Positions 559 to 22,849 of a stretch of DNA of 32,000 bases are shown one piece after another. A program made the position numbers and the translations under genes. The stretch comes from Trichodesmium erythraeum IMS101 (lineage in GTDB: Bacteria; Cyanobacteriota; Cyanobacteriia; Cyanobacteriales; Microcoleaceae): contig NC_008312.1 in NCBI RefSeq assembly GCF_000014265.1, positions 1,020,001 to 1,052,000 on the forward strand. The letters are read 5' to 3'. The notes below the pieces were generated by a model. That model worked only from the letters and a program-made list of their open reading frames with translations, was not told the DNA's origin and did not search any database. The first letter of the stretch is position 1; each line of letters starts with the position of its first letter.

Positions 559-820
559 AACAGATAAGTAGGAGATTAAATAGGAAGGTTTTATATGACG
601 TTCATAGGTTATAGCAAACATAAGAAGAATTCAAACTAATTATCTAATAATTATCAAAAACTTAAAAAAAGACTGTGTTAATTGCTTAAAAATTTAAGTA
701 TCACCTCAATATAGTATTACTTTTGGTTATTGCTATAAAATTGTTACAGATTTAGTCTTTTGTTGCCACCTCAAGAGTGAAGTGTTAAAATTTAGTCTGT
801 TGTCAATAAATTCAATAATA

Positions 821-3800
821 ATGACTATAGCTAATCCTATTAAAAAGGTTAACCAACTACTTCGGGAAAGAAAATTTGATGATGCTTTTAAAGAGTGCCA
901 AAAATCTATAGAAGTAAACCCTAATTTTTCCTGGAATTATTACTATTTAGGAAAAATATTAGCTGCACAAAATAAATGGCAAGAAGCACTTATCCAATAT
1001 GAAGAGGCAGTTAAAATCAATCCTAACTCTGCAACTTTTTACTATAGCTTGGCTAAAACTTTAAGACATCAAGGTCAATTAGATGAAGCAATTAAATATC
1101 TAAAAATAGCTATTTCTCTAAAAAATAATGTGATTATTTATCAACAAACTCTAGCTGAAGTTTATGAAGTTAAGTTTGATTTTGTGGGCGCATTTAAAAT
1201 TTGGCAAGAAATTATTGCTATTAATTATAATCATCCTGTAGCAACAAAAAAAATTCATTGGTTACGAACAGATATTGTTAGAGATTTTGTCGAGAATGGG
1301 GATAAGTTAAATAAGGAAGGAAAAATCAAGGAGGCTGTTAATTTTTACCAGCAAGCATTAACTATAAATTCCCAACAGCCTATGCCTATTTATCGTAATT
1401 TTGGGAATAATTTAATTACTTTAGGTAAATTTGAGGAAGCAGAAACGGTATTTAAGCAATTAAAAGAAATGTATCCAGAGCTAACAGATGGTTATGAGGG
1501 TTATGCAAGGTTAACTCATAGTTTAGGGAATTGGGAGTTGGCATTAAAGCGTTGGGAAAATGCTATAGAAAAGTTTCCAGAAAATATCGGTTTTCAAACT
1601 CAGAAAGGCAATATGTTGATAAATTTGTCTCGGTTTGATGAGGCAGAATCAGTTTTTCAAAGTTTAAAAGAAAAGTTTCCTCATCAACCTCAAGGTTACG
1701 ATGGTTATGCCAGATTAACTCATAGTTTTGCTGATTGGAACTTGGCTTTGAAGCGTTGGGAAAATGCTATAGAAAAGTTTCCAGAACATATCGGTTTTCA
1801 AACTCAGAAAGGCAATATATTAATAAATTTATCTCGGTTTGATGAAGCAGAATCAGTTTTTCAAAGGTTAATAGAAAAGTTTCCTCATCAACCTCAAGGT
1901 TACGATGGTTATGCCAAATTAACTTATCGTTTTGCTGATTGGAACTTGGCTTTGAAGCGTTGGGAAAATGCCATAGAAAAGTTTCCAGAAAATATCGGTT
2001 TTCAAACTCAGAAAGGCAATATGTTGATAAATTTGTCTCGGTTTGATGAAGCAGAATCAGTTTTTCAAAGGTTAATAGAAAAGTTTCCTCATCAACCTCA
2101 AGGTTACGATGGTTATGCCAGATTAACTCATAGTTTTGCTGATTGGAACTTGGCTTTGAAGCGTTGGGAAAATGCTATAGAAAAGTTTCCAGAAAATATC
2201 GGTTTTCAAACTCAGAAAGGCAATATGTTGATAAATTTGTCTCGGTTTGATGAAGCAGAATCAGTTTTTCAAAGGTTAATAGAAAAGTTTCCTCATCAAC
2301 CTCAAGGTTACGATGGTTATGCCAGATTAACTCATAGTTTTGCTGATTGGAACTTGGCTTTGAAGCGTTGGGAAAATGCTATAGAAAAGTTTCCAGAAAA
2401 TATCGGTTTTCAAACTCAGAAAGGCAATATGTTGATAAATTTGTCTCGGTTTGATGAAGCAGAATCAGTTTTTCAAAGGTTAATAGAAAAGTTTCCTCAT
2501 CAACCTCAAGGTTACGATGGTTATGCCAGATTAACTCATAGTTTTGCTGATTGGAACTTGGCTTTGAAGCGTTGGGAAAATGCTATAGAAAAGTTTCCAG
2601 AACATATCGGTTTTCAAACTCAGAAAGGCAATATATTAATAAATTTATCTCGGTTTGATGAAGCAGAATCAGTTTTTCAAAGGTTAATAGAAAAGTTTCC
2701 TCATCAACCTCAAGGTTACGATGGTTATGCCAGATTAACTCATCGTTTTGCTGATTGGAACTTGGCTTTGAAGCGTTGGGAAAATGCCATAGAAAAGTTT
2801 CCAGAAAATATCGGTTTTCAAACTCAGAAAGGCAATATGTTGATAAATTTGTCTCGGTTTGATGAAGCAGAATCAGTTTTTCAAAGGTTAATAGAAAAGT
2901 TTCCTCATCAACCTCAAGGTTACGATGGTTATGCCAGATTAACTCATAGTTTTGCTGATTGGAACTTGGCTTTGAAGCGTTGGGAAAATGCTATAGAAAA
3001 GTTTCCAGAAAATATCGGTTTTCAAACTCAGAAAGGCAATATGTTGATAAATTTGTCTCGGTTTGATGAAGCAGAATCAGTTTTTCAAAGGTTAATAGAA
3101 AAGTTTCCTCATCAACCTCAAGGTTACGATGGTTATGCCAGATTAACTCATAGTTTTGCTGATTGGAACTTGGCTTTGAAGCGTTGGGAAAATGCTATAG
3201 AAAAGTTTCCAGAAAATATCGGTTTTCAAACTCAGAAAGGCAATATGTTGATAAATTTGTCTCGGTTTGATGAAGCAGAATCAGTTTTTCAAAGGTTAAT
3301 AGAAAAGTTTCCTCATCAACCTCAAGGTTACGATGGTTATGCCAGATTAACTCATAGTTTTGCTGATTGGAACTTGGCTTTGAAGCGTTGGGAAAATGCT
3401 ATAGAAAAGTTTCCAGAACATATCGGTTTTCAAACTCAGAAAGGCAATATGTTGATAAATTTGTCTCGGTTTGATGAAGCAGAATCAGTTTTTCAAAGGT
3501 TAATAGAAAAGTTTCCTCATCAACCTCAAGGTTACGATGGTTATGCCAGATTAACTCATAGTTTTGCTGATTGGAACTTGGCTTTGAAGCGTTGGGAAAA
3601 TGCTATAGAAAAGTTTCCAGAAAATATCGGTTTTCAAACTCAGAAAGGCAATATGTTGATAAATTTGTCTCGGTTTGATGAAGCAGAATCAGTTTTTCAA
3701 AGGTTAATAGAAAAGTTTCCTCATCAACCTCAAGGTTACGATGGTTATGCCAGATTAACTCATAGTTTTGCTGATTGGAACTTGGCTTTGAAGCGTTGGG

Positions 3801-6800
3801 AAAATGCTATAGAAAAGTTTCCAGAACATATCGGTTTTCAAACTCAGAAAGGCAATATATTAATAAATTTATCTCGGTTTGATGAAGCAGAATCAGTTTT
3901 TCAAAGGTTAATAGAAAAGTTTCCTCATCAACCTCAAGGTTACGATGGTTATGCCAAATTAACTTATCGTTTTGCTGATTGGAACTTGGCTTTGAAGCGT
4001 TGGGAAAATGCCATAGAAAAGTTTCCAGAAAATATCGGTTTTCAAACTCAGAAAGGCAATATGTTGATAAATTTGTCTCGGTTTGATGAAGCAGAATCAG
4101 TTTTTCAAAGGTTAATAGAAAAGTTTCCTCATCAACCTCAAGGTTACGATGGTTATGCCAGATTAACTCATAGTTTTGCTGATTGGAACTTGGCTTTGAA
4201 GCGTTGGGAAAATGCTATAGAAAAGTTTCCAGAAAATATCGGTTTTCAAACTCAGAAAGGCAATATGTTGATAAATTTGTCTCGGTTTGATGAAGCAGAA
4301 TCAGTTTTTCAAAGGTTAATAGAAAAGTTTCCTCATCAACCTCAAGGTTACGATGGTTATGCCAGATTAACTCATAGTTTTGCTGATTGGAACTTGGCTT
4401 TGAAGCGTTGGGAAAATGCTATAGAAAAGTTTCCAGAAAATATCGGTTTTCAAACTCAGAAAGGCAATATGTTGATAAATTTGTCTCGGTTTGATGAAGC
4501 AGAATCAGTTTTTCAAAGGTTAATAGAAAAGTTTCCTCATCAACCTCAAGGTTACGATGGTTATGCCAGATTAACTCATAGTTTTGCAGATTGGAACTTG
4601 GCTTTGAAGCGTTGGGAAAATGCTATAGAAAAGTTTCCAGAACATATCGGTTTTCAAACTCAGAAAGGCAATATGTTGATAAATTTGTCTCGGTTTGATG
4701 AGGCAGAATCAGTTTTTCAAAGGTTAATAGAAAAGTTTCCTCATCAACCTCAAGGTTACGAGGGTTATGCCAGATTAGCTAATCATTTGGGGAATTGGGA
4801 ATTAGCTTTGAAGCGATGGGAAAATGCGATTAATCATTTGCCCCACCATTTTCATTTTTATGTACAGAAAGGGAATGTTTTAATTACTTTATTTAGGTAT
4901 CAAGAAGCAGAAACTTTGTTTGAGGAACTTATCTCAAAATATCCTCATCAACATCATGGTTATGATGGTTTAGCCAGAGTATTAATGCACGCCCAAAAAT
5001 GGGAATTAGCCTTAACTTGTTGGCAAACTGCTATGGATAAATTTCCAAATAATCTTGTGTTTTTAGTTGGTAAAGCTAATGCTTATATAGAACTACATAA
5101 GTTTGATTCAGCTCAGGATTTAGCAGATAGAATATTTCGCCAATATCCTAACTATTATCAACAAAAATATGGTCTCCAAAAAAATATCATATTGCGTCGT
5201 TATGCGCTTGAAAAAAGTATCGCTTCTCTAAGCAAAGTCGAAGATTATTTCAGATATTTGTTGTCTGAATCAGAGGTTTTTCCTATTGCTTATTCTTGTG
5301 ATCAAATACTTTTAGAATCAATAAATAATCTTACTCAAACTATGCACCATTTTATTACCCTTGGCATTATTGGCATAGCCGTGAAAAGATTATTAGATGA
5401 TTACTTTTTAGAGGTATCACCTGGAGAGATATTAGCTTGTACATTTAAAAAGTTAATTACTCAAAAATTAGGGAATGAAAATTTTGACTTACAGCAAGCA
5501 GAAATATTATGTACTGAAGGAAATTTTCGGGCTGCTATTGATATTTACCTTAATCTAGGAGATGAGATAATAGAAGAATTTATTCCTGACTATCCAGAAC
5601 ATATTGATAGACTATTTTATGGAATAATAGAGCATAATATAACAGCAGATTTACCAGAAAAATATGGCAGTTTATCATTAGCAAAGGAAACCCTAGAAGC
5701 AGACTTAATAAATGCTGATTTTGATGGCGATAGTATTAGTATTTACTCTCAACTGGGTTATTTATTAGTACATCTAGGTGAAACTGAGAAGGGTTTAGCG
5801 TATTTAAACAAGGGTGTAGAAATTTCTATTTATAGTCAGGATGCCTATATCAAATTGGGCTACGCTTTATTAAAAATAGGAAAAAAAGATTCGGCATTTG
5901 CTAATTATAAACAGGCGATTAAATTAAATTTTGCTTTGGCTTTATTAAGTGCGACTTTAATAGAATGGGGAATATCTAAGTCTCACCAATTAATCAATAG
6001 TGGTTGTCAAAAGTTTGAAGTCTATCAACAACTTTCAAATTTGTTGATTCAAAAAGGTTTGTCAAAAGAAGCTTTGGAAGTTGTTCATAAAGTTCAGAAT
6101 AAATTTGGTGATGGACACTATGGCAAGAAAAATTTAATCCCTATTTTAGTTGCTCAAGGAAATAAGCAGGAAGCACTAAAATACTATCAACAAGTATTAA
6201 TAGAAAATCCTAAATCTGCTGATAAAAATTTGAGTGTTTTGAGAAGTTGTTCCTCTTTGGAAAAGTTTGAAAATCAAACTCTGCTACAAGCAGTAATGTG
6301 CGATAGATTTAAAATTGCTTATGCTTATATTCCTAAATGTGCTTGCACTACAATAAAAACTGTCATCAAGTTCCTATCATCTGAGCTTAAGAAGGATAAC
6401 TATAGAATAAATAAAAAAATTAGTACTCTTAAGTATCAAGATCCAATGGAGATACATCGATTCCAAAAAATTTACTTGATAAATATGGGAAATATAACAA
6501 CTAATTATTTTAAATTTGTAGTAGTGAGAGAGCCAATTAAGCGTTTTTTATCTGCTTTTTCTAATAAAATATTATACTCTAAAGAATCATTAGAAAGAAC
6601 TAAATTAACCGCCATTCAATATCTATCAATGGCTCAGTTAGGAGTTAATCCCGAAATAAATTCGATGATTGAAAACTTAGAATTATATTCAGAAATGTCT
6701 GATAATTGGCAACTTCATATCAAACCGCAGCACACTTTTATGGGCAATCAAATAAAGGGATTCGATCGTATATTTCAAGTAGAGCGTTTAGGAGAATTAG

Positions 6801-7000
6801 GGAAAAAATTATCAGAAATAACTGGGTTTGAAATTAACTTACCCAGACTTAATACTGGAGGTAGAAAAATATCATTAGCAGAGTTGTCAGAGAAGTCTAT
6901 AAAAAAATTAATTGACTTTTATTCCAGAGATTATGAGTTACTAAAAGATTATTATTCTCCAGAGAAAATTTGGGATGAATATCAAGCATTAAAAAGATAA
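821..7000 (+). CDS. Giant TPR-repeat protein with a C-terminal sulfotransferase (family 2-like) domain
   Basis: Single long ORF. The first in-frame start is GTG at 782, but ATG at 821 (MTIANPIKK...) is more likely. The N-terminal and central parts are 34-aa TPR-like repeats (A..W/F...IEKFP periodicity). The region encoded by about 6290-6997 carries sulfotransferase-type motifs: YIPKCACTT (5'-PSB-like loop) and VVREPIKRFLSAFSNK (3'-PB-like). Confidence 0.85.
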   Translation: MTIANPIKKVNQLLRERKFDDAFKECQKSIEVNPNFSWNYYYLGKILAAQNKWQEALIQYEEAVKINPNSATFYYSLAKTLRHQGQLDEAIKYLKIAISLKNNVIIYQQTLAEVYEVKFDFVGAFKIWQEIIAINYNHPVATKKIHWLRTDIVRDFVENGDKLNKEGKIKEAVNFYQQALTINSQQPMPIYRNFGNNLITLGKFEEAETVFKQLKEMYPELTDGYEGYARLTHSLGNWELALKRWENAIEKFPENIGFQTQKGNMLINLSRFDEAESVFQSLKEKFPHQPQGYDGYARLTHSFADWNLALKRWENAIEKFPEHIGFQTQKGNILINLSRFDEAESVFQRLIEKFPHQPQGYDGYAKLTYRFADWNLALKRWENAIEKFPENIGFQTQKGNMLINLSRFDEAESVFQRLIEKFPHQPQGYDGYARLTHSFADWNLALKRWENAIEKFPENIGFQTQKGNMLINLSRFDEAESVFQRLIEKFPHQPQGYDGYARLTHSFADWNLALKRWENAIEKFPENIGFQTQKGNMLINLSRFDEAESVFQRLIEKFPHQPQGYDGYARLTHSFADWNLALKRWENAIEKFPEHIGFQTQKGNILINLSRFDEAESVFQRLIEKFPHQPQGYDGYARLTHRFADWNLALKRWENAIEKFPENIGFQTQKGNMLINLSRFDEAESVFQRLIEKFPHQPQGYDGYARLTHSFADWNLALKRWENAIEKFPENIGFQTQKGNMLINLSRFDEAESVFQRLIEKFPHQPQGYDGYARLTHSFADWNLALKRWENAIEKFPENIGFQTQKGNMLINLSRFDEAESVFQRLIEKFPHQPQGYDGYARLTHSFADWNLALKRWENAIEKFPEHIGFQTQKGNMLINLSRFDEAESVFQRLIEKFPHQPQGYDGYARLTHSFADWNLALKRWENAIEKFPENIGFQTQKGNMLINLSRFDEAESVFQRLIEKFPHQPQGYDGYARLTHSFADWNLALKRWENAIEKFPEHIGFQTQKGNILINLSRFDEAESVFQRLIEKFPHQPQGYDGYAKLTYRFADWNLALKRWENAIEKFPENIGFQTQKGNMLINLSRFDEAESVFQRLIEKFPHQPQGYDGYARLTHSFADWNLALKRWENAIEKFPENIGFQTQKGNMLINLSRFDEAESVFQRLIEKFPHQPQGYDGYARLTHSFADWNLALKRWENAIEKFPENIGFQTQKGNMLINLSRFDEAESVFQRLIEKFPHQPQGYDGYARLTHSFADWNLALKRWENAIEKFPEHIGFQTQKGNMLINLSRFDEAESVFQRLIEKFPHQPQGYEGYARLANHLGNWELALKRWENAINHLPHHFHFYVQKGNVLITLFRYQEAETLFEELISKYPHQHHGYDGLARVLMHAQKWELALTCWQTAMDKFPNNLVFLVGKANAYIELHKFDSAQDLADRIFRQYPNYYQQKYGLQKNIILRRYALEKSIASLSKVEDYFRYLLSESEVFPIAYSCDQILLESINNLTQTMHHFITLGIIGIAVKRLLDDYFLEVSPGEILACTFKKLITQKLGNENFDLQQAEILCTEGNFRAAIDIYLNLGDEIIEEFIPDYPEHIDRLFYGIIEHNITADLPEKYGSLSLAKETLEADLINADFDGDSISIYSQLGYLLVHLGETEKGLAYLNKGVEISIYSQDAYIKLGYALLKIGKKDSAFANYKQAIKLNFALALLSATLIEWGISKSHQLINSGCQKFEVYQQLSNLLIQKGLSKEALEVVHKVQNKFGDGHYGKKNLIPILVAQGNKQEALKYYQQVLIENPKSADKNLSVLRSCSSLEKFENQTLLQAVMCDRFKIAYAYIPKCACTTIKTVIKFLSSELKKDNYRINKKISTLKYQDPMEIHRFQKIYLINMGNITTNYFKFVVVREPIKRFLSAFSNKILYSKESLERTKLTAIQYLSMAQLGVNPEINSMIENLELYSEMSDNWQLHIKPQHTFMGNQIKGFDRIFQVERLGELGKKLSEITGFEINLPRLNTGGRKISLAELSEKSIKKLIDFYSRDYELLKDYYSPEKIWDEYQALKR
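1532..4795 (+). repeat. 16 near-identical in-frame tandem units of 204 bp (68 aa, two TPR motifs each) inside the giant ORF
   Basis: The unit WNLALKRWENAIEKFPENIGFQTQKGNMLINLSRFDEAESVFQRLIEKFPHQPQGYDGYARLTHSFAD recurs every 204 nt (for example tgctatagaaaag at 1561 and 1765). Units differ by 0-5 nt. More diverged units continue on both flanks (about 1380-1531 and 4796-5200). Confidence 0.95.
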
Positions 7001-7703: not shown

Positions 7704-9122
7704 TCAATTCTCACTTGTTTTAATACCCTCACTAAAATCTGAGAAAAGTTGCTTTTGCTTTTCAAGAGATATATTTTCATCACTTCCTAATCTATCTAAA
7801 ATATCTAATATTTCCCGTTCAAATGTCACATTAGCACGATTAGTTTTACCCCCTATATAAAGTCGCTCACTCTCTTGAAAAGCCCAAATTTGAGAGTGAG
7901 AAACATAACTCATTAATACACTCAACATTAATAAACCAAAACCTAAATAAACAATTGGAATACCAGGGTCAGCTTTAATTTGTAAGCCTGTACTACCTAT
8001 AATTTTGTCAATAAATAGAGTGACACCACTCACCTCTATAAACATTCCTTCCCGCACACTAGCAACTAACTTACCAGAAGTATCATAAACTAATACATTT
8101 CCTTGTAAATCTTTGGCAAGTAAAGATACACCTTCACTTAAATCTGGTTTTATAGGAACCCAAGTACCCCAAATTTTACCCCCTCCTTCTGTATTTAATT
8201 GTGCCATTGGTAACCGAAAAACAGGACTTTTATTAACCCTAACTTTAACTGCAGCGATCGCCCAATCTGCTTGATACATTGTCACCCCATGATAACGCAT
8301 AGGTTGATTAACAAATATGGTTTTCCTATCTACTTCTTCTCCACTTTTATCTAATATTGATAAGTCAGAATAAAACTGGTCAATTCCTCCAGAAGGAGTA
8401 TAATCAATCCAGAAACGATTGACTCGAACTGACCAATTTTTAGGAATTTGTGACTTAGCAAAAATTCCCGCATCAATAATATTTTTTACTTGAAATGTTT
8501 CCCCACTCGGCACTATTTCTTGACCAAGAAATCCAGTCATTGAGCCGATTATTGAACCTGCTAAAATTATTAGCATACTAGCGTGAACTATTATGGGACC
8601 AACTTTGCCAATAATTCCTTTTCTTCCATAAAGTTTATCTCCTTCTTTAGAAGTTTTATAGCCCCTTTTCTGTAATATTTCTTCTAAAGAATCTAGAGAA
8701 GCTGTTTCTATTTCTGCACTTAATGCTAAGTTTTTAAATTGTTGTTTTTTATTATAAAATTTCCAGCGGTTCGCAGATTTTAGGGCTGGTAATTGTCTAG
8801 TAAATGTGCAGGCAGTTAAACTAGCTCCGAATAATATTAATATTGATAAAAACCACCAAGTCCGGTAAACATGATCTAATTCTAATAATAAAATTACTTT
8901 CCAGGTTAAAAAACCAAATAATGCTGGTTTTTCTGGATAGTTTTCTTGATAAAAAGCTATTGACTCACCTTGTTCTATAACTGTGCCTGAAATACTACAG
9001 ATAGCTATTATTAAAAGTAGAGCGATCGCCAAGCGTAAATCAGCTAATAATGGCAATATTTCTCGTTTAAATATTCTTAAAGGATTTATCAGAGAATTTT
9101 TATCTGAATCTTCAACATCCAT
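7704..9122 (-). CDS. ccs1: Cytochrome c biogenesis protein Ccs1/CcsB (ResB family, System II)
   Basis: The translation has the typical N-terminus [28 protein letters not shown], further TM segments and a large soluble loop ([33 protein letters not shown]). The ORF opens at TTG 9146. The first ATG is at 9122 and is used here as the start. Confidence 0.85.
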
Positions 9123-9385
9123 TGATTTAATTACTATTAGTTTCAATAATTTTTATTGTAGTCAATAAGTTAGGTATAACTCAACATTAAAAAAAATCGC
9201 CCGGTGGTTTAACTAAAATTTTTTATAAATTAGCACTTTATTCCTAACAACTATATCTATACTCCTTAGGCTTATTTCTACTTGCTTACTTTATGAGAGA
9301 AGTATTAATATTCCTAATATAACTTATATTAAATCCATTAATTAGGTATAAAAAAACTGATAACTAAATGCTAATAGCTGCAAAC

Positions 9386-10117
9386 TTACACTGGTATAAT
9401 CCTAGATAAAAGTGAAAATACACCAAAACCAACTAATAAAATTCCACTAGCAGGTGTAATCCAACTAGACCATTTTCTAATTTCCAAAAATTTTTTAATA
9501 TTAGCTGTAAAAGCTCCTGCTAATATCAAAGGTGTGACATAACCCATAGCATAAAATAGCAAGAAAAATCCACCTAAAATTAAATCTCCAGTAGTCGAAA
9601 CCCAAGCTAATAATGTCGCTAATACAGGAGTGCTACAAGGAGATGCTATTAAACCAAATGTTAAACCTAATAAATATGAACGTACTCCTTTAGGTAAATC
9701 TTGAGATATCCATCCCATACTGTCAAAAGATGGCATTGGTAATGGTAATGCTTCTAGTAAGTTAAGACCCATAAAAATAGCTATTATACTAACAACAATT
9801 GGTAATCCTACACCTACTTGACCATAGACTTTTCCCAGCAATGATGCTATAATACCTAACCCAGCTAAAGTTGTAGCTAATCCTAGAGAAAACCAAGCAG
9901 ATTGAACAGTAGCTTGAATACGACTTTTAGCTTCGTATCCGCCAATATAACCAATAGTTATTGGTAGCATGGAAAGCATGCAAGGAGTAAGACTGGTCAG
10001 TAAACCAGCTACAAAGATAGTTACTAAACTTACCCAACTTAGGTGTGTTAGTTGAGTTTTTACTAAACTATTTGCATATTGGGCGGTTTCGTAAAAGAAA
10101 GTTAGGATAGTTTCCAT
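9386..10117 (-). CDS. ccdA: Cytochrome c-type biogenesis thiol:disulfide transmembrane protein CcdA (DsbD-like)
   Basis: 243-aa polytopic membrane protein with the two conserved Cys-containing segments (LTSLTPCMLSMLPITIGYIGG and LIASPCSTPVLATLLAW). ATG start at 10117. Same strand as ccs1 and immediately upstream of it. Confidence 0.85.
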   Translation of the reverse strand: METILTFFYETAQYANSLVKTQLTHLSWVSLVTIFVAGLLTSLTPCMLSMLPITIGYIGGYEAKSRIQATVQSAWFSLGLATTLAGLGIIASLLGKVYGQVGVGLPIVVSIIAIFMGLNLLEALPLPMPSFDSMGWISQDLPKGVRSYLLGLTFGLIASPCSTPVLATLLAWVSTTGDLILGGFFLLFYAMGYVTPLILAGAFTANIKKFLEIRKWSSWITPASGILLVGFGVFSLLSRIIPV

Positions 10118-14057: not shown

Positions 14058-15113
14058 ATGGATCTAGTCAAACTCCAAAAGTCATTGGACAACATCTCGT
14101 TTGGTATCTTGTTTGCCACAATGCTTATTTATTGGTTGGGTGCTGCTTTTCCTCGTATCCCCTATCTCTCAATTTTAGGTTCTACAGGAATGGCGATCGC
14201 TAATCTCTGTATTGCCACATTACTCGGAGCTCGCTGGTTAGAAGCTAGTTATTTCCCTATTAGCAATTTGTACGAATCTTTATTTTTCTTGACATGGGGA
14301 ATTACCACTATTCATCTTATAGCTGAAAATATGAGTGGCGCTCGCCTGGTTGGAGTATTTACCTCTCCAATTGCTATGGGTATTTCTGCTTTTGCTGCCC
14401 TAACTTTACCCTCCAATATGCAGATATCTGAGCCCTTGGTGCCTGCTCTAAAATCTAATTGGTTGATGATGCACGTTAGTGTCATGATGTTGAGTTATGC
14501 AACCCTTATAGTAGGGGCATTATTGGCTATCGCTTTTCTTATAATAACCAGTGGCCAAAAAGTTGAACTTAGTGGTAGTTCTTTTGGCACTCGTTCTTCT
14601 AGAAATAATCATTTTGTGAAGTATCAAAAAAATTGGCAACTACAAAAAGAAAGACCATTACTGAAGGAAATCAAAAACAACTATAAACCTTTTCCCCAAT
14701 CTACAAAAAATGACCATAGTCAAACTTCAGTCTTGGAAATAACCGAGGTTACTCAAAAAGTTGATCCAGAAATAATACTTTCACCAGAACGTTTAAATAT
14801 TGCTCAAATCCTAGATAACATTAGCTATCGTATCATTGGTTTAGGATTCCCACTACTAACTATTGGAATTATTGCTGGAGCAGTTTGGGCAAATGAAGCT
14901 TGGGGTTCTTATTGGAGTTGGGACCCAAAAGAAACTTGGGCTTTAATTACTTGGTTAGTGTTTGCAGCTTATCTTCATGCCCGTATTACTAAAGGATGGC
15001 AAGGGCGAAAACCTGCTATTTTGGCCGCTACTGGATTTGCTGTAGTCTGGGTATGTTATTTAGGAGTAAATCTTTTAGGTAAAGGTTTACATTCTTATGG
15101 TTGGTTTTTGTGA
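14058..15113 (+). CDS. ccsA: Cytochrome c biogenesis protein CcsA (System II heme-handling/synthase subunit)
   Basis: Polytopic protein with the WWD-type tryptophan-rich motif [19 protein letters not shown] and conserved His residues. GGAG lies 9 nt upstream of ATG 14058. Confidence 0.9.
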
Positions 15114-15816: not shown

Positions 15817-16140
15817 ATGGAAACTGAGGTTAATCTACTAAGTAATGATGATGTTTTGTCTACAGGTGCGAGTATTTTGATGTTTCAATGTACATTTAAA
15901 GTTAGTGAATATATAACTATGATTTTAGCAAAACTAGAGTCGGAAAACCTATTTGAAGATGGGTTAGAATGTCAATTATTAAAACCTGGTTATTACTGGA
16001 GAAAAGGAAAGGTAAAACTTCGTTTAGAATTTCTGACAGAAACTTCTGATACTGTTTCAAAAAAATGGTTGTCTCGAAGTGTTGTTAGTTCTATTAGTTA
16101 TCCTGAAGAAGTTGTAGAAGATGTAGGAATGTGGAGTTAA
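15817..16140 (+). CDS. KGK-domain protein (cyanobacteria-specific family of unknown function)
   Basis: 107 aa. NDDVLSTG...CTFKVSEY...FEDGLECQLLKPGYYWRKGKVKLRLEFLTE matches my recollection of the KGK domain (PF08872: DDVL, TFKVS, W.KGKV...EF). ATG start. Same strand as the methyltransferase gene and 135 nt upstream of it. Confidence 0.65.
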   Translation: METEVNLLSNDDVLSTGASILMFQCTFKVSEYITMILAKLESENLFEDGLECQLLKPGYYWRKGKVKLRLEFLTETSDTVSKKWLSRSVVSSISYPEEVVEDVGMWS

Positions 16141-16275: not shown

Positions 16276-18555
16276 ATGGAAAATGAACTTAATTTTCAAA
16301 AAAAAAGTAGCTATGAACTCCTACTCTATTTGGCTTTAAATATAAAAAACTTTCAAATATCGCCTAAAATAAAATTAGAAACTGACTTACCCCAGAAAGT
16401 TAGAGACGATATCAAAACTTATTTTTGTACTTATAAGTCTGCTTGTCAATTTGCTAATCAAATATTTTTAGAAGTTTATCAACCAGGAGCGATTAAAAAG
16501 TACTGTCAACAAAGTAAAATAGGGAAAAAATTACCAACTGCTCTTTATATTCATATTTCTGCAGTTGAACAACTTCATCCCTTACTGCGACTCTACGAAA
16601 ATTTAGCTCATCATTTATATTATAAAGCAGTTTCTAGAGAAAAAACTGATGCTAAAATTACCACATTAATAAAGTTTAATTTTGACAAACCAACAATTTC
16701 TTATTTACATTATCCAGATTTTGATATTGACCCTCATCCTGCCTTAAAAACTAGCATTTCCATTAATATGAATAATGGAAAAGTTGAGCATAGAAACTAC
16801 AGTAATCATAAAAACCCTCCCGTTTTGCATCGGAAAGAAACTTTTGTTACTCCTAAATATCCCCAATACGAAAAATTCGCTAAGTTAACTTCTGATGAGG
16901 TTCAACTAGGACTATTAGATAATACTTGTTTAATTGGTACTCGTCAAGGATGGTTAACGCACCTCAAAAATCATGGAATAGAAATTCAAGATCATCATGT
17001 TATTCAGCATACTATTGAGATGCCAATTCCTCAAATAAAACGTCATAAAGCTGCTATAGTTCGTAAACAAATTTCTAAACCAGTACGTTTAGCTATAGAA
17101 GCAAATCTATTTACAGAAGGTAGAACTTTTTTTGACTATGGTTGTGGCTATGGTGAGGATATCAAATATATTGCTAAAAAAGGTTATTTAAGTGCGGGTT
17201 GGGACCCCTATTATTTGCCAGAAACTCCTTGTATTGCTGCTGATATTGTTAATCTTGGTTATGTAATTAATGTAATAGAATCTTTGACAGAACGTAGGGA
17301 AGCTTTGATTAAATCTTGGGGGTTAACTAAACAAATTTTAATTGTTTCTGCTATGGTGCTAATTGATGATAGTAAAACTGAGGGAAAACTTGCTTATGGA
17401 GATGGCATAATTACAGCTCGTAAGACTTTTCAAAAATATTATGAACAGGAAGAATTAAAATCTTATATTGACCAAGTGTTGAATGTAGATTCGATTCCTA
17501 TTGATTTAGGAATTTTCTTTGTTTTTAAAGATGAAGCAGAAGCTCAAAATTTTCGGGCTTCTCGCTTAAAAAGTCGTTTATTAACCCCAAGAATAAGTTG
17601 CAAAAATAAGCGGTTTGAAGATTATGAAGAACAGCTTATTCCTTTAATGAATTTTATGAGCGATCGCGGTCGTCTACCATTCAGGGGAGAACTTGTGGAA
17701 GAGACAGATTTAATTGCAGAGTTTGGTACTTTTCGTCGTGCATTTCAAGTGATTATGCAAGTAACAAACTATCAAGAATGGGATGAAATAACAGATAAAC
17801 GTCGTCAAGATTTGTTGGTATATATAGCCTTGACTAAGTTTGGTAATAGACCTAAGTTTTCCCAATTATCAGTAGTAGTCAGAAATGATATTAAAGCTTT
17901 ATTTGGTAGTTACACTAAAGCCTGTACTTTAGGTGATTTAATGTTATTTAGTTTGGGTAATTCTGACTTGATAAGTAAATGTTGTAAAAATAGTTTTATT
18001 GGTTATAAATATACTAATTCTCTATTGGTTCATATTTCTGCTGTTCCAAAACTTGATCCCTTGCTGCGACTTTATGAAGGTTGTGCTAATCGAACAATTG
18101 GTAGGTTAAATGAGGCAACTATCGTTAAATTTTATTATAAATTACCAATAATATCTTATTTATTTTACCCCGATTTTGATACGGAAGCTCATCCAGTTTT
18201 ACGTACAAGAATGAATATTGATTTGCGAGACTTGAGTGTTAGCTATGAGGATTATAAAAATGAATATAATCCACCAATTTTGCACAGAAAAGATGCTTTA
18301 GTAACTTCAGATTATCCCCACTATGAAAAGTTTACTAAACTTACATTACAAGAAGAAGATAGAGGGCTTTTAAATAATTTAAAACAAATTCAAAATAGAC
18401 TGGGATGGCTAAAATGTTTAGAGGAAAATTTTGCAGAAATTAAAGGTCATCGTGTTTATTGGCGTACTAATGTTGACCCTTATCAGTTAAAAATATTAAA
18501 GTCTGCTGATGCTGCTCGGAAGCGCAGAAGAAAACAACAACTAAATCAGAAATGA
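16276..18555 (+). CDS. SAM-dependent methyltransferase of the 'DNA phosphorothioation-associated putative methyltransferase' type (TIGR04096-like) with an extra N-terminal copy of the family's C-terminal domain
   Basis: The middle (aa about 255-430) has KRHKAAIVRKQISKPVRLAIEANLF, motif I FFDYGCGYGEDI, WDPYY, NLGYVINVIES and FQKYYEQEELK. aa 512-730 carry HISAVPKLDPLLRLYEGCA, YPDFD..HP, NPPILHRKD and YPHYEKFTKLT. aa 14-243 are a roughly 40% identical second copy (HISAVEQLHPLLRLYENLA, YPDFD..HP, NPPVLHRKE, YPQYEKFAKLT). Basic C-terminal tail. Confidence 0.75.
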   Translation: MENELNFQKKSSYELLLYLALNIKNFQISPKIKLETDLPQKVRDDIKTYFCTYKSACQFANQIFLEVYQPGAIKKYCQQSKIGKKLPTALYIHISAVEQLHPLLRLYENLAHHLYYKAVSREKTDAKITTLIKFNFDKPTISYLHYPDFDIDPHPALKTSISINMNNGKVEHRNYSNHKNPPVLHRKETFVTPKYPQYEKFAKLTSDEVQLGLLDNTCLIGTRQGWLTHLKNHGIEIQDHHVIQHTIEMPIPQIKRHKAAIVRKQISKPVRLAIEANLFTEGRTFFDYGCGYGEDIKYIAKKGYLSAGWDPYYLPETPCIAADIVNLGYVINVIESLTERREALIKSWGLTKQILIVSAMVLIDDSKTEGKLAYGDGIITARKTFQKYYEQEELKSYIDQVLNVDSIPIDLGIFFVFKDEAEAQNFRASRLKSRLLTPRISCKNKRFEDYEEQLIPLMNFMSDRGRLPFRGELVEETDLIAEFGTFRRAFQVIMQVTNYQEWDEITDKRRQDLLVYIALTKFGNRPKFSQLSVVVRNDIKALFGSYTKACTLGDLMLFSLGNSDLISKCCKNSFIGYKYTNSLLVHISAVPKLDPLLRLYEGCANRTIGRLNEATIVKFYYKLPIISYLFYPDFDTEAHPVLRTRMNIDLRDLSVSYEDYKNEYNPPILHRKDALVTSDYPHYEKFTKLTLQEEDRGLLNNLKQIQNRLGWLKCLEENFAEIKGHRVYWRTNVDPYQLKILKSADAARKRRRKQQLNQK

Positions 18556-19585
18556 AAATTTAGCAGTTGAAGATGTTTTATACCAAGCGTCAAAAAGAAT
18601 GTTATAAGTAGTTTCAAACTATATATATCGAATAACTTCCTCAAATGACTGAGAGGGTTAAAGTTTGGAATTTTCAAATCTTAATATATGAATATATAAC
18701 TTCTATGAAGTGTAATTAGATATAGCAATTTTTATTTCTGAGTGAGCTACAAAATTCATTTATTTTACAAGCCAAAGAGTAGCTGGGGAGATTATATGCA
18801 ATGTACATTATTAATAAGCACCTAAACAAAATTGTTGACCTATTTGATGTGAGACTTGTATTATAATAGATGAAGGCTAAAAATAATTTGTAATTAATCT
18901 TGTGTACCTGCTATTTTCTGGGGGTTTTAGGGGAATTCAAAAAATAAAAACACTATACCTCACTAATTTGATAAACCTTATAAAAATTAATACTCAGCTA
19001 TCACTCTATTGCTCATACAAAATCTGAAAAAATTTGTATATATTCTGAAAAAAATGCTTAGTAGTAAGTATGATAACAATAGTGAAAAAAATGCAACATT
19101 TTCTAGAGATTAGGGAGTAGGGTTTTAGAATAAACATTAATCACGCTCTTTACTAATAAATCTCTACAGAAATTACTCTTACTGACTTATTACTTAATGA
19201 TTAAAATCTTGAGAGAATATTGGAGGAAATCGTTATTATATCAGGTCTCATTAATTAGCTATAATAAATTGTCTAACTTGAGTAATATTTGGGTGATTTG
19301 TATTATTCAGACCAGAAGTTTATTTCTTGATAAATTAACAATATGATAGTTTAAAATATAGAGTTTTTTTTAAATGATATATAAATTTATATTCAAGTTT
19401 TTTTTGATCAAAGAATGTTGTATTAAATACTCAAAATTTATATTGTTAACCACTATTTAATGCTTTTTCCCTTGTTTTCTATTGCCAGAGTGCCTCAAAC
19501 CTATTCTCTTTTTAATAGTACTCGGTTTTTATACTCCATATAAAAACTTTACATATTAACAAGATATAAACTATAACTAAAACAA

Positions 19586-20161
19586 ATGAACAAATTATTT
19601 GAAAGATTGAATGCCCAGGTTACAATTTTGGGAAGCATTATTGCTATTCTTTGGATTGTACAAATTATTAATGCAGAACTTTTAGGAGGAAAACTGAATT
19701 ATTATGGAGGAATTCATCCTCAAAGTTCTATTGGGATTACTAATATTTTTTCTGCTCCATTTTTGCATGGTAGTTATACTCACTTAATAGCTAATATTGT
19801 ACCACTAATTACTCTGGGATGGTTAATCATGTTACGGGGATTTAGTGATTTTTTCTTCGTGAGTATTGTTACTATAATTATTAGTGGTCTAGGTATTTGG
19901 TGCTTTGGTTCTCCAGATTCTATTCATATCGGTGCTAGTGGATTAATTTTTGGTTATTTTGGTTTTTTATTACTCCGAAGTATATTTGACTTTAGCATTT
20001 TATCAGTTATATTTGCCTTGACTGCTGGTTTTCTTTACAGTGGTTTAATTTGGGGTATTTTACCTTCTGATCCTAATATATCCTGGGAGGCACACTTATT
20101 TGGTTTTCTCGGTGGGATATTTGCAGCTCAAATATTAGGGAAACGCAAAAGGAATAAGTAA
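19586..20161 (+). CDS. Rhomboid-family intramembrane serine protease
   Basis: 191-aa six-TM-like protein with the catalytic GASGLIFGYFG (GxSG) motif and a downstream His in AHLFGFLGG. Confidence 0.8.
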   Translation: MNKLFERLNAQVTILGSIIAILWIVQIINAELLGGKLNYYGGIHPQSSIGITNIFSAPFLHGSYTHLIANIVPLITLGWLIMLRGFSDFFFVSIVTIIISGLGIWCFGSPDSIHIGASGLIFGYFGFLLLRSIFDFSILSVIFALTAGFLYSGLIWGILPSDPNISWEAHLFGFLGGIFAAQILGKRKRNK

Positions 20162-21862: not shown

Positions 21863-22849
21863 TCATACTATATTAAGCGTGAATTTATTCTCTGTATAAT
21901 ATTCTTTTAGTATAGATGGCAGACTGTAGAGATTTTCTTGTTTTTCGATCAGGGAACGACGACACAAAGATTGTAATATGTTGAGTAAAGCTGATGGCGA
22001 CGTTTCTGTAGTTTCTAAAAGTTTCGCCAAACTAATAGGTTGATTTTTTGTGGCTAAAAGTGACAGAGTGTATTTTTCTGCTTGGGAAAGGCGATCGCAT
22101 TGCTGTTGTAAGTTATCTTTCAAATATTCTGGCAATAAGATGATATCACTGGGCAATAACTCAATCAAACTTTCTTCCAATTCTTGAATTTGAGTCGCTA
22201 CAATTTTTAACCATAGAGGGTTGCCTTGATAGAGATGAATGAGTTTTTCTGAATGTTCAATTTTTGCCAAACCATAATTTATGAGTATTTCTTTGGCGCT
22301 TTTGATATCTAAACCAGTCAGTTGCAAAATAGGAATGATAGTTTTCTTGCTTTTGAGTTGGAGCAGTTTAATGGGTTCCCAACCTATTAATAACAGGCAA
22401 CTTTGATGAGATAGTTTTTCTATCTGTTGGAAAAAGTAGTCATATTCTTCGTATCCTGGTTTGTACTTTCCAGCTAACTCCCCACTGCTGAATAGGTTAT
22501 GAATGTTATCCAAGACAACTAAACAGTGATGCTTCTGTAAATATTTGATTAAGTCTAAAGGTTTATGTCTGTTTTTGAGAAAATTTTGTGGTTGAGACTG
22601 GGAGAAAAACTCAATTAAGTCAGCTTGAAATTCGGCAAAATTGGAGGTTTTTTTGAGGCTGCGCCAAATTACATAGTCAAAATTATCTTTTATTTGTTGA
22701 ATGAGTTTTACCGCTAATGTAGTTTTACCGATACCACTGATACCCGTGAGTGCAATGACGGGAAAGCATTTTTCTAAAATCCAGGTTTTCAGGGTGTAGA
22801 TGAAACTCACACAAAATATCGACAAAACTGGAAGTTTTTGAGTAGGCAA
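21863..22849 (-). CDS. NB-ARC/STAND P-loop NTPase core only (possibly a truncated gene)
   Basis: Walker A GISGIGKTTLA, Walker B-like CLVVLDNIHN, LLLIGWEP, GNPLWLKIVA (GxP motif) and a winged-helix-like tail. There is no in-frame ATG; the frame opens at TTG 22849, right after a stop. Only about 35 aa precede the P-loop, and there is no effector domain and no WD40/TPR sensor. Confidence 0.65.
   Translation of the reverse strand: MPTQKLPVLSIFCVSFIYTLKTWILEKCFPVIALTGISGIGKTTLAVKLIQQIKDNFDYVIWRSLKKTSNFAEFQADLIEFFSQSQPQNFLKNRHKPLDLIKYLQKHHCLVVLDNIHNLFSSGELAGKYKPGYEEYDYFFQQIEKLSHQSCLLLIGWEPIKLLQLKSKKTIIPILQLTGLDIKSAKEILINYGLAKIEHSEKLIHLYQGNPLWLKIVATQIQELEESLIELLPSDIILLPEYLKDNLQQQCDRLSQAEKYTLSLLATKNQPISLAKLLETTETSPSALLNILQSLCRRSLIEKQENLYSLPSILKEYYTENKFTLNIV

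Follow-up and report, generated by a model that had tools for sequence, protein, structure and literature searches.

Two diverged copies of an undescribed domain flank the methyltransferase core of a TIGR04096-family protein in Trichodesmium erythraeum

In a 32,000-nucleotide stretch of the Trichodesmium erythraeum IMS101 genome (NC_008312.1, positions 1,020,001 to 1,052,000; hereafter the window, whose numbering is used throughout), the open reading frame (ORF) at 16276..18555 on the + strand encodes a 759-aa putative S-adenosylmethionine (SAM)-dependent methyltransferase of the family TIGR04096, in which two copies of a domain of about 230 aa, here called D, enclose the methyltransferase, M (layout D-M-D). 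Our analysis suggests that this layout goes back to an old fusion of two complete M-D units, that the first unit later lost its M while keeping its D, and that the remaining M works together with this retained D; we put the probability of this explanation as a whole at about 0.7. Its evolutionary part is likely, and is if anything the safer one, while the mechanistic part (the crossed pairing of D and M, and a role of D on nucleic acid) is put forward only tentatively. The protein itself is a regular TIGR04096 member in the normal cyanobacterial architecture, and the duplication is old, widespread and already present in the databases, although we found no published description of it. The parts of the gene are as follows, with domain bounds taken from hidden Markov models (HMMs) built for D and M in this analysis.

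16276..18555, + strand: whole gene, TIGR04096-family putative SAM-dependent methyltransferase with the layout D-methyltransferase-D (ORF; TIGR04096 at 950.7 bits).
16291..17010, + strand: N-terminal copy of D (N copy), aa 6-245, with a helical subdomain at about aa 6-78 and an alpha/beta core at about aa 79-245 (D HMM positions 9-235, 300 bits; predicted local distance difference test score, pLDDT, mostly 80-91).
16813..16839, + strand: NPPVLHRKE motif of the N copy, aa 180-188 (alignment conservation).
17032..17754, + strand: predicted class I SAM methyltransferase core with helical linker, aa 253-493 (M HMM positions 1-240, 365 bits).
17131..17160, + strand: SAM-binding motif I, FDYGCGYGED, aa 286-295 (GxGxG at aa 289).
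17764..18465, + strand: C-terminal copy of D (C copy), aa 497-730, at the site of the family model's D (D HMM positions 2-235, 333 bits).
18268..18294, + strand: NPPILHRKD motif of the C copy, aa 665-673 (alignment conservation).
18466..18552, + strand: basic helical C-terminal tail, aa 731-759, including KRRRK (net charge +7 over aa 732-759; predicted helix at aa 735-758).

The match to TIGR04096 lies far above the NCBI curated cut-off of 150 bits, and all 478 positions of the profile (1-478) are covered by aa 253-730, with M plus linker spanning profile positions 2-258. The N-terminal 253 aa alone gave a second, partial match to the same model (profile positions 253-477, 220.7 bits); thus, the D at aa 6-245 goes beyond what the model, which consists of methyltransferase, linker and D, describes. 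The closest relative (P0001), a protein of a Trichodesmium metagenome-assembled genome (MAG), is 98% identical and is annotated with the TIGR04096 family name. The AlphaFold2 model of the whole protein had a mean pLDDT of 83.5 and a predicted TM-score (pTM) of 0.62.

The first-pass annotation, made from the sequence alone, had proposed that the two flanking domains align along their full length, and this was borne out. When the N-terminal 255 aa were compared with the C-terminal 281 aa by BLASTP, aa 10-246 paired with aa 508-731 (E 8e-57), near where the copies had been placed, with 97/237 identities (41%) and 55% positives; the four peptide blocks quoted as shared are all present in the protein. 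In the AlphaFold2 model, both copies show the same order of elements, namely four helices followed by beta-alpha-alpha-beta-beta-beta-beta-alpha-alpha-beta-beta. The internal repeat is real and far beyond chance. The annotation had also held that similarity is still visible at the DNA level. The 48-nt strings it quoted, at 16552 and 18031, do agree at 40/48 bases, but they are not the mark of a young event: over 224 aligned codons the nucleotide identity of the two copies is 58.5%, and the same codon is used at 52 of the 97 identical residues, where 51.5 are expected from the gene's own codon usage. Because codon identity equals the expectation, the DNA likeness carries no sign of recency and is a by-product of protein conservation and codon bias. 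The copies bear no mark of a young duplication or of gene conversion.

To place the layout within the family, the best 120 homologues, all of them cyanobacterial, were split by domain queries. The majority were D-M-D, either at 750-800 aa or, with a shorter N copy, at 695-780 aa; homologues of 960-1050 aa were M-D-M-D, and those of 880-920 aa had a truncated first M. In P0069, P0097 and the locus L028, the first linker is all that is left of the M of the first unit. Furthermore, a scan of one genome per GTDB species gave at least 593 loci, of which the best 80 were examined. These were all cyanobacterial, from many orders (two records are labelled with other phyla), and in 80/80 of them a D, or an M-D, stands ahead of the live M. 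Full-length N copies were found in the Trichodesmium/Okeania clade, a Planktothrix and one MAG, and nine of the 80 loci, L028 included, were M-D-M-D-like. In about 60, the N copy begins at HMM position 56-70, that is, it consists of the alpha/beta core without the helical subdomain (short-D-M-D). Plasmids of Proteobacteria, among them Methylibium, Azospirillum and Massilia, carry such short-D-M-D genes as well. A search of 1.84 billion 50%-identity representatives with the D profile gave 2080 proteins at E <= 0.001; among the representatives listed with a complete M (n=88), 47 were M-D, 37 (about 42%) were of D-M-D type, 3 were M-D-D and 1 was D-M. Members with the order methyltransferase-linker-domain that start near the KRHKAAI segment, described as canonical in the first-pass annotation, therefore do exist: they correspond to the 478-position model, to 47 of the 88 representatives and, for example, to a 500-aa protein of Nonomuraea. 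The rarity that it implied for the two-D form did not hold. Because of the 80/80 loci, the 37/88 representatives and the proteobacterial plasmid genes, D-M-D has to be regarded as a second standard form of the family and as the standard form in Cyanobacteria, which for this branch is the very situation that the annotation had named as speaking against its proposal.

Two irregular loci were seen in close relatives. In Okeania SIO3B5 (L011, 5840-6097), an extra partial copy with the first ~70 residues of D lies just upstream of the gene, and in a Trichodesmium MAG (L009, 2253-4445) the gene is broken into two ORFs, one for D and one for M-D; these may be assembly errors or real disruptions.

The M-D-M-D proteins show how the first methyltransferase has decayed. 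Among first methyltransferases of full length, 10 of the 11 aligned share a deletion of about 26 residues (the exception is P0021), which removes motif I and the next strand (GCGYG..GWDPY), while the remaining domain and the linker can still be aligned. Neighbour-joining trees of the shared D core (159 columns) were computed to follow the history of the copies. The cyanobacterial C copies formed one clade free of any N or internal copy (bootstrap 89%). The N copies of D-M-D proteins were mixed with the internal copies of M-D-M-D proteins in a second group, and the branching was parallel in both groups. N copies of other genera matched the window's N copy at 400-550 bits, compared with about 160 bits for the window's own C copy. 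Thus, the duplication is older than the sampled cyanobacterial radiation, and the N copies have their orthologues in the first-unit D of M-D-M-D. Since M-D-M-D proteins are scattered among D-M-D proteins in both subtrees, the first M appears to have been lost repeatedly.

A two-gene form of the arrangement was found via P0128, a 481-aa M-D protein with a dead M and an N-type D that groups with the N copies. After its TGA and two further codons, a gene for a 508-aa M-D protein with a C-type D follows in the same frame, with GAGGGG just before its ATG. The pair occurs at L088 (3532-6510) and L089 (834-3812), on contigs that are 99.97% identical. It represents either the unfused state or a re-split gene; in both cases, the pair shows that the two units can stand as tandem genes. 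Upstream of it, in divergent orientation, is a DUF4007 (SspB-like) gene.

The two copies of D have fared differently. In comparisons with five relatives (74-87% identity), the N copy had a dN/dS of 0.12-0.21, as against 0.18-0.24 in M and 0.13-0.22 in the C copy, which indicates that the N copy is under purifying selection in the same way as the rest of the protein and is not a relic. A 49-sequence alignment has about 40 invariant columns in the N copy between G83 and L230, including N180, P181, P182, L184, H185, R186, K187 and E188. In the 30 cyanobacterial N or internal copies, the N, P, P, L, H, R and K of this motif are each conserved at 100% and the E at 93%. K84, Y91, G221, T222 and NPPxLHRKE are common to cyanobacterial N copies, proteobacterial N copies and single-D proteins, whereas the C copies of two-D proteins lack K84, Y91, G221 and T222; the motif is relaxed in cyanobacterial C copies (H 80%, R 70%) and missing as a whole in the non-cyanobacterial ones. 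Conserved residues peculiar to the C copies include W502, R509, R510, G602-R610, C603, C714, C719, W729, R730, D734 and P735. On an HMM of the core of single-D proteins, the N copy outscored the C copy in 53/64 proteins, with a mean difference (N minus C) of +43 bits outside Cyanobacteria and +7 bits inside. The C copy is the family's D by position; by sequence, the N copy is no less faithful to the ancestral domain. The suggestion that the N copy is an addition stands in so far as it is extra to the M-D members; it is not a mere add-on, because it keeps the features that the C copy has lost or relaxed.

C603, C714, C719 and H725, conserved in C copies only, could form a metal site. At aa 719 (18430-18432), the window protein and P0001 have Phe and 46/49 homologues have Cys; if there is a metal site, the window lineage would have lost one ligand.

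The most likely course of events is that two complete M-D units were fused head to tail long ago, which would have given M1-D1-M2-D2. M1 would then have lost its SAM-binding loop and been deleted stepwise, with D1 retained; in the Trichodesmium/Okeania lineage, M1 and its linker would have been removed cleanly, leaving D1-M2-D2 with a full-length D1. No relic of the first M was found upstream of the gene in the window by an HMM scan of six frames (--max). D2 would have lost part of the single-D signature and gained conserved residues of its own, perhaps on the way to a diverged structural or regulatory role. The single chain may be an asymmetric version of an M-D dimer, in which the live M2 works with D1 of the other unit; the loss of M1, the constant retention of D1 with the ancestral signature and the drift of D2 are what would be expected if M acts with the D of its partner unit. 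The first-pass annotation had suggested a fusion of the 3' end of a tandem paralogue with a complete downstream gene. The fusion of tandem paralogues agrees with the M-D-M-D proteins, the graded truncation intermediates and the one in-frame two-gene pair; however, the observations match a fusion of entire genes in which the first methyltransferase was eroded afterwards, and not a single step involving the 3' end of a gene.

Several points weigh against this explanation. Bootstrap support was 15% for the monophyly of the N and internal copies and 48% for all cyanobacterial copies together; with such low values, the duplication may be an older, single event that the proteobacterial short-D forms have in common with the cyanobacterial ones. 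That M1 was lost and not gained is what we infer from parsimony and distance trees, and the pair at L088/L089 could be a secondary split of a fused gene. As to tandem paralogues at homologous loci, which the first-pass annotation had suggested looking for, a separate paralogue within 8 kb was present at 0/80 species loci, and that pair is the one case. The copies of the window protein itself score alike on the single-D HMM (N 183, C 186.5). With a pTM of only 0.62 for the whole protein, the contact of D1 with M2, or a pseudo-dimer geometry, is something that we infer. The model of D found nothing significant in the PDB by Foldseek (best E 0.41, TM 0.23), and no family in Pfam, PADLOC or PHROGs was matched by D. 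Finally, we know of no demonstrated activity for any TIGR04096 member, and to our knowledge the methyltransferase has never been shown to methylate.

Other origins were considered. A recent lineage-specific duplication, or copies kept alike by ongoing gene conversion, could account for the 40/48-base stretch, but this is ruled out by the codon statistics and the trees: besides the low overall nucleotide identity, the N copies of other genera resemble the window's N copy far more than its own C copy does, the C copies form a clade of their own, and the architecture is present in all 80 cyanobacterial species loci. It is also highly improbable that the N copy is a non-functional remnant heading for loss. 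Its N terminus has been truncated repeatedly in relatives; however, its dN/dS is as low as in the rest of the protein, it has some 40 invariant columns, and the D core is kept in all 80 loci except L085, in which only half of the core was detected.

Another explanation is that D-M-D, or the short-D form, is ancestral, so that M-D proteins lost the N-terminal D and M-D-M-D is secondary. The occurrence of short-D-M-D in Proteobacteria as well as in Cyanobacteria, the single-D signature borne by the N copies and the support of only 48% for a cyanobacteria-specific duplication agree with it. On this account, however, it is hard to see how the first M of M-D-M-D arose, given its clear homology to M and its stepwise decay and truncation; in the N subtree as in the C subtree, M-D-M-D is paraphyletic to D-M-D, and M-D proteins lie inside classical dnd clusters in Actinomycetota. 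We regard an ancestral D-M-D as improbable. A little less probable still is the capture of the N-terminal D from a stand-alone D-core gene upstream of an M-D gene, instead of a whole M-D unit. D cores that stand alone are indeed encoded, one of 159 aa in Microbulbifer and one of 190 aa in a phage, the order in the phage is D then M, and many N copies consist of the core only. Nevertheless, the cyanobacterial N copies interleave with the internal copies of M-D-M-D, the intermediates keep parts of the first M or of the linker, and the N copy of the window has the full helical subdomain. Such a capture may still apply to the non-cyanobacterial short-D forms. Fusion of two M-D units with subsequent loss of M1 therefore remains our preferred explanation for the window protein.

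With regard to D itself, the C copy modelled alone by AlphaFold2 had a pLDDT of 92 and a pTM of 0.85. An hmmsearch of PDB sequences with the D profile gave nothing significant, and a fold search of BFVD gave one unnamed 1232-aa viral protein (106 columns). In the literature, no paper dealing with TIGR04096 or dnd_rel_methyl was found, and the product name came up once, in passing; what two comparative-genomics papers on Dnd and BREX say of methyltransferases (PMC10853773) and of FtsK, PAPS reductase and phosphorothioation (PMC12839542) contains nothing on the TIGR04096 family. The free-standing D of the uncultured 485-kb phage (L092, LR745208.1) is encoded at 4944-5516, and 430 nt downstream, at 5958-6635, is a separate gene for an M-like methyltransferase with a weak but specific match to M (HMM E 4.7e-7, BLASTP E 3e-6). 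Thus, D and M can also be encoded by two partner genes, D first and M second. Each D copy of the window protein has a net charge of +9. In view of this positive charge, the dnd association of relatives and the pairing with a separate M-like methyltransferase in the phage, D is probably a nucleic-acid binding or recognition module. More speculatively, and with less confidence than for the crossed pairing, D may represent a fold and a family not described before and may be an obligate partner of the methyltransferase, whether fused after M, fused before M or separate. The enzyme would then work across subunits, with single-D members forming head-to-tail dimers, and the family could be a nucleic-acid modification or reader module that arose in phosphorothioation islands and, in many cyanobacteria including Trichodesmium, was domesticated as a solitary, vertically inherited chromosomal gene serving the host.

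The central domain has the features of a class I SAM methyltransferase, namely a Rossmann-like fold, a GxGxG motif I and an acidic residue. In motif I, D287, G289, G291, G293 and D295 are invariant, and the following GWDPYY carries the invariant D310, the acidic residue after strand 2. The top Foldseek matches of M were class I SAM methyltransferases (probability 1.0, with E values of only 6e-4 to 1e-2), the nearest solved structures being small-molecule and tRNA methyltransferases; a fold search with the whole protein gave methyltransferase-type matches only among the 50 listed. No Pfam methyltransferase model matched the window protein, and in homologues such matches were below threshold. 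PADLOC-DB contained no defence family matched by the protein at E <= 0.1. The catalytic motif IV, (D/N/S)PP(Y/F/W), of DNA amino-methyltransferases (N6-adenine/N4-cytosine) was not found in the protein. The sole xPPx matches, NPPV at aa 180 and NPPI at aa 665, were rejected as motif IV: both lie in the D copies, the wrong domain, and neither is followed by an aromatic residue. In relatives, the linker between M and D shows weak matches to PF18780 ('homing endonuclease associated repeat'), as in P0032 (aa 180-220, 28.4 bits, cut-off 26) and, below this cut-off, P0021 (aa 676-715, 21.6 bits). The segment corresponds to about aa 445-496 of the window protein, where PF18780 has no match.

The TIGR04096 family takes its name from an association with dnd genes, which holds for relatives and not within the window. 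A tblastn search of the 32 kb with DndA, DndB, DndC, DndD and a DGQHR protein found nothing. The Nonomuraea protein, a single-D M-D member, adjoins dndA, dndB, dndC and dndD, and the M-D-M-D loci L043, L048, L049 and L073 come directly after dndB/C/D, as does a fifth locus whose flank is truncated. Among short-D loci, dnd clusters were adjacent in 3/64, and 9/64 had nearby either a PAPS-reductase-like gene or one whose product is homologous to a hypothetical protein encoded in an Azospirillum operon. None of the eight window-type loci, which have a full-length N copy, had dnd genes, a PAPS-reductase-like gene or that hypothetical nearby. In the window, ccsA (14058-15113) and an ORF for a 107-aa KGK-domain protein (15817-16140, + strand) lie upstream and a rhomboid gene (19586-20161) lies downstream. 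The order ccsA-KGK-gene-rhomboid is kept throughout the Trichodesmium/Okeania clade and also in a 61%-identical MAG, with the neighbours about as conserved as the gene; the KGK-domain ORF is directly upstream in this clade and in L062. GC content is about 31% throughout the window, which is Trichodesmium-like. As judged from the 32-kb window, the gene appears to be solitary, set among housekeeping genes, vertically inherited and uncoupled from dnd genes.

Other features were noted in the window and at homologous loci. Around the gene are genes for system II cytochrome c biogenesis, namely ResB/CcsB (7704-9146), a CcdA-like protein with DsbD_TM (9386-10117) and the CcsA mentioned above. In the stretch of about 1 kb that follows the gene (18556-19585), ORFs of >= 50 aa are absent, as are Rfam and tRNA matches, and Rfam and tRNA scans of the whole window were empty. 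The region 782-7000 (+ strand) is a 2072-aa ORF with TPR repeats throughout and a C-terminal sulfotransferase domain; within it, a 204-bp (68-aa) unit is repeated in tandem 16.4 times at 1490-4827, with 97% DNA identity between the copies. At 21863-22849 (- strand), a 328-aa ORF has only an NB-ARC/NACHT-type STAND NTPase domain; it looks short for a protein of this type and may be truncated. On an Azospirillum plasmid (L003, 1-11013), the short-D-M-D gene is the last of a tight operon, preceded in this order by genes for a PAPS-reductase family protein, hypothetical proteins of 614 aa and 535 aa and a 1771-aa FtsK/SpoIIIE-domain protein; the operon looks like an undescribed modification or defence module. 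The 535-aa hypothetical has a weak C-terminal match to the MADS protein MAD7; both hypotheticals recur beside the Methylibium homologue, and the 614-aa one occurs in two cyanobacteria (loci L001, L039 and L074).

Two things are of value here: the undescribed domain D, and the asymmetry in what became of the duplicated parts. D is a domain of about 230 aa without a Pfam entry, a solved relative or a literature, found across 2080 clusters (50% identity, E <= 0.001). The fusion, the death of one enzyme half and the retention of the 'wrong' accessory domain would give a testable hint on how the enzyme is organised; on the more speculative reading given above, the repeated retention of D1 and M2, with M1 lost and D2 free to diverge, would reflect catalysis across subunits. 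Furthermore, the label 'phosphorothioation-associated' does not suit the window locus and its closest relatives (0/8 with dnd nearby), nor most of the cyanobacterial loci sampled. For genetics, a convenient system is the model organism Synechocystis PCC 6803, whose plasmid pSYSM (L002, 8541-11019) encodes a 690-aa short-D-M-D homologue (WP_011153563). The gene for this homologue is preceded by an ORF for a 97-aa HNH endonuclease; in its neighbourhood are an AAA ATPase/DUF4276 pair and a gene of the cysteine desulfurase family that is 38% identical to DndA.

Among known systems, phosphorothioate-DNA readers such as the sulfur-binding domain of ScoMcrA, and the domains of Dnd and Ssp proteins, have as their sole feature in common with the window protein the association of its relatives with phosphorothioation genes; in the Foldseek search cited above (E 0.41, TM 0.23), D showed no fold likeness to the solved Dnd/Ssp and sulfur-binding domains. 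The family model itself, TIGR04096 'DNA phosphorothioation-associated putative methyltransferase' (dnd_rel_methyl), is matched in full, including motif I, but it is M-D only, and the window protein has a second D before M. The family also includes the fused M-D-M-D paralogues of Oscillatoria, Phormidium and Oxynema (P0021, P0025, P0113, L048, L049 and L073), which are 50-55% identical over the whole window protein and whose internal D is orthologous to its N copy. They keep the first methyltransferase, with the SAM loop gone save in P0021, and mostly lie directly downstream of dndB/C/D, whereas the window protein lacks the first methyltransferase. In METTL3-METTL14 and Trm61-Trm6, an active methyltransferase is paired with a pseudo-enzyme; after duplication one copy lost SAM binding, and the dead copy is kept as a scaffold in a separate subunit. 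The first M of the M-D-M-D relatives shows the same loss, a likeness that we draw from general knowledge of these pairs. Unlike in those pairs, the units here are fused, the dead methyltransferase would finally have been deleted, and its accessory domain alone would have been retained.

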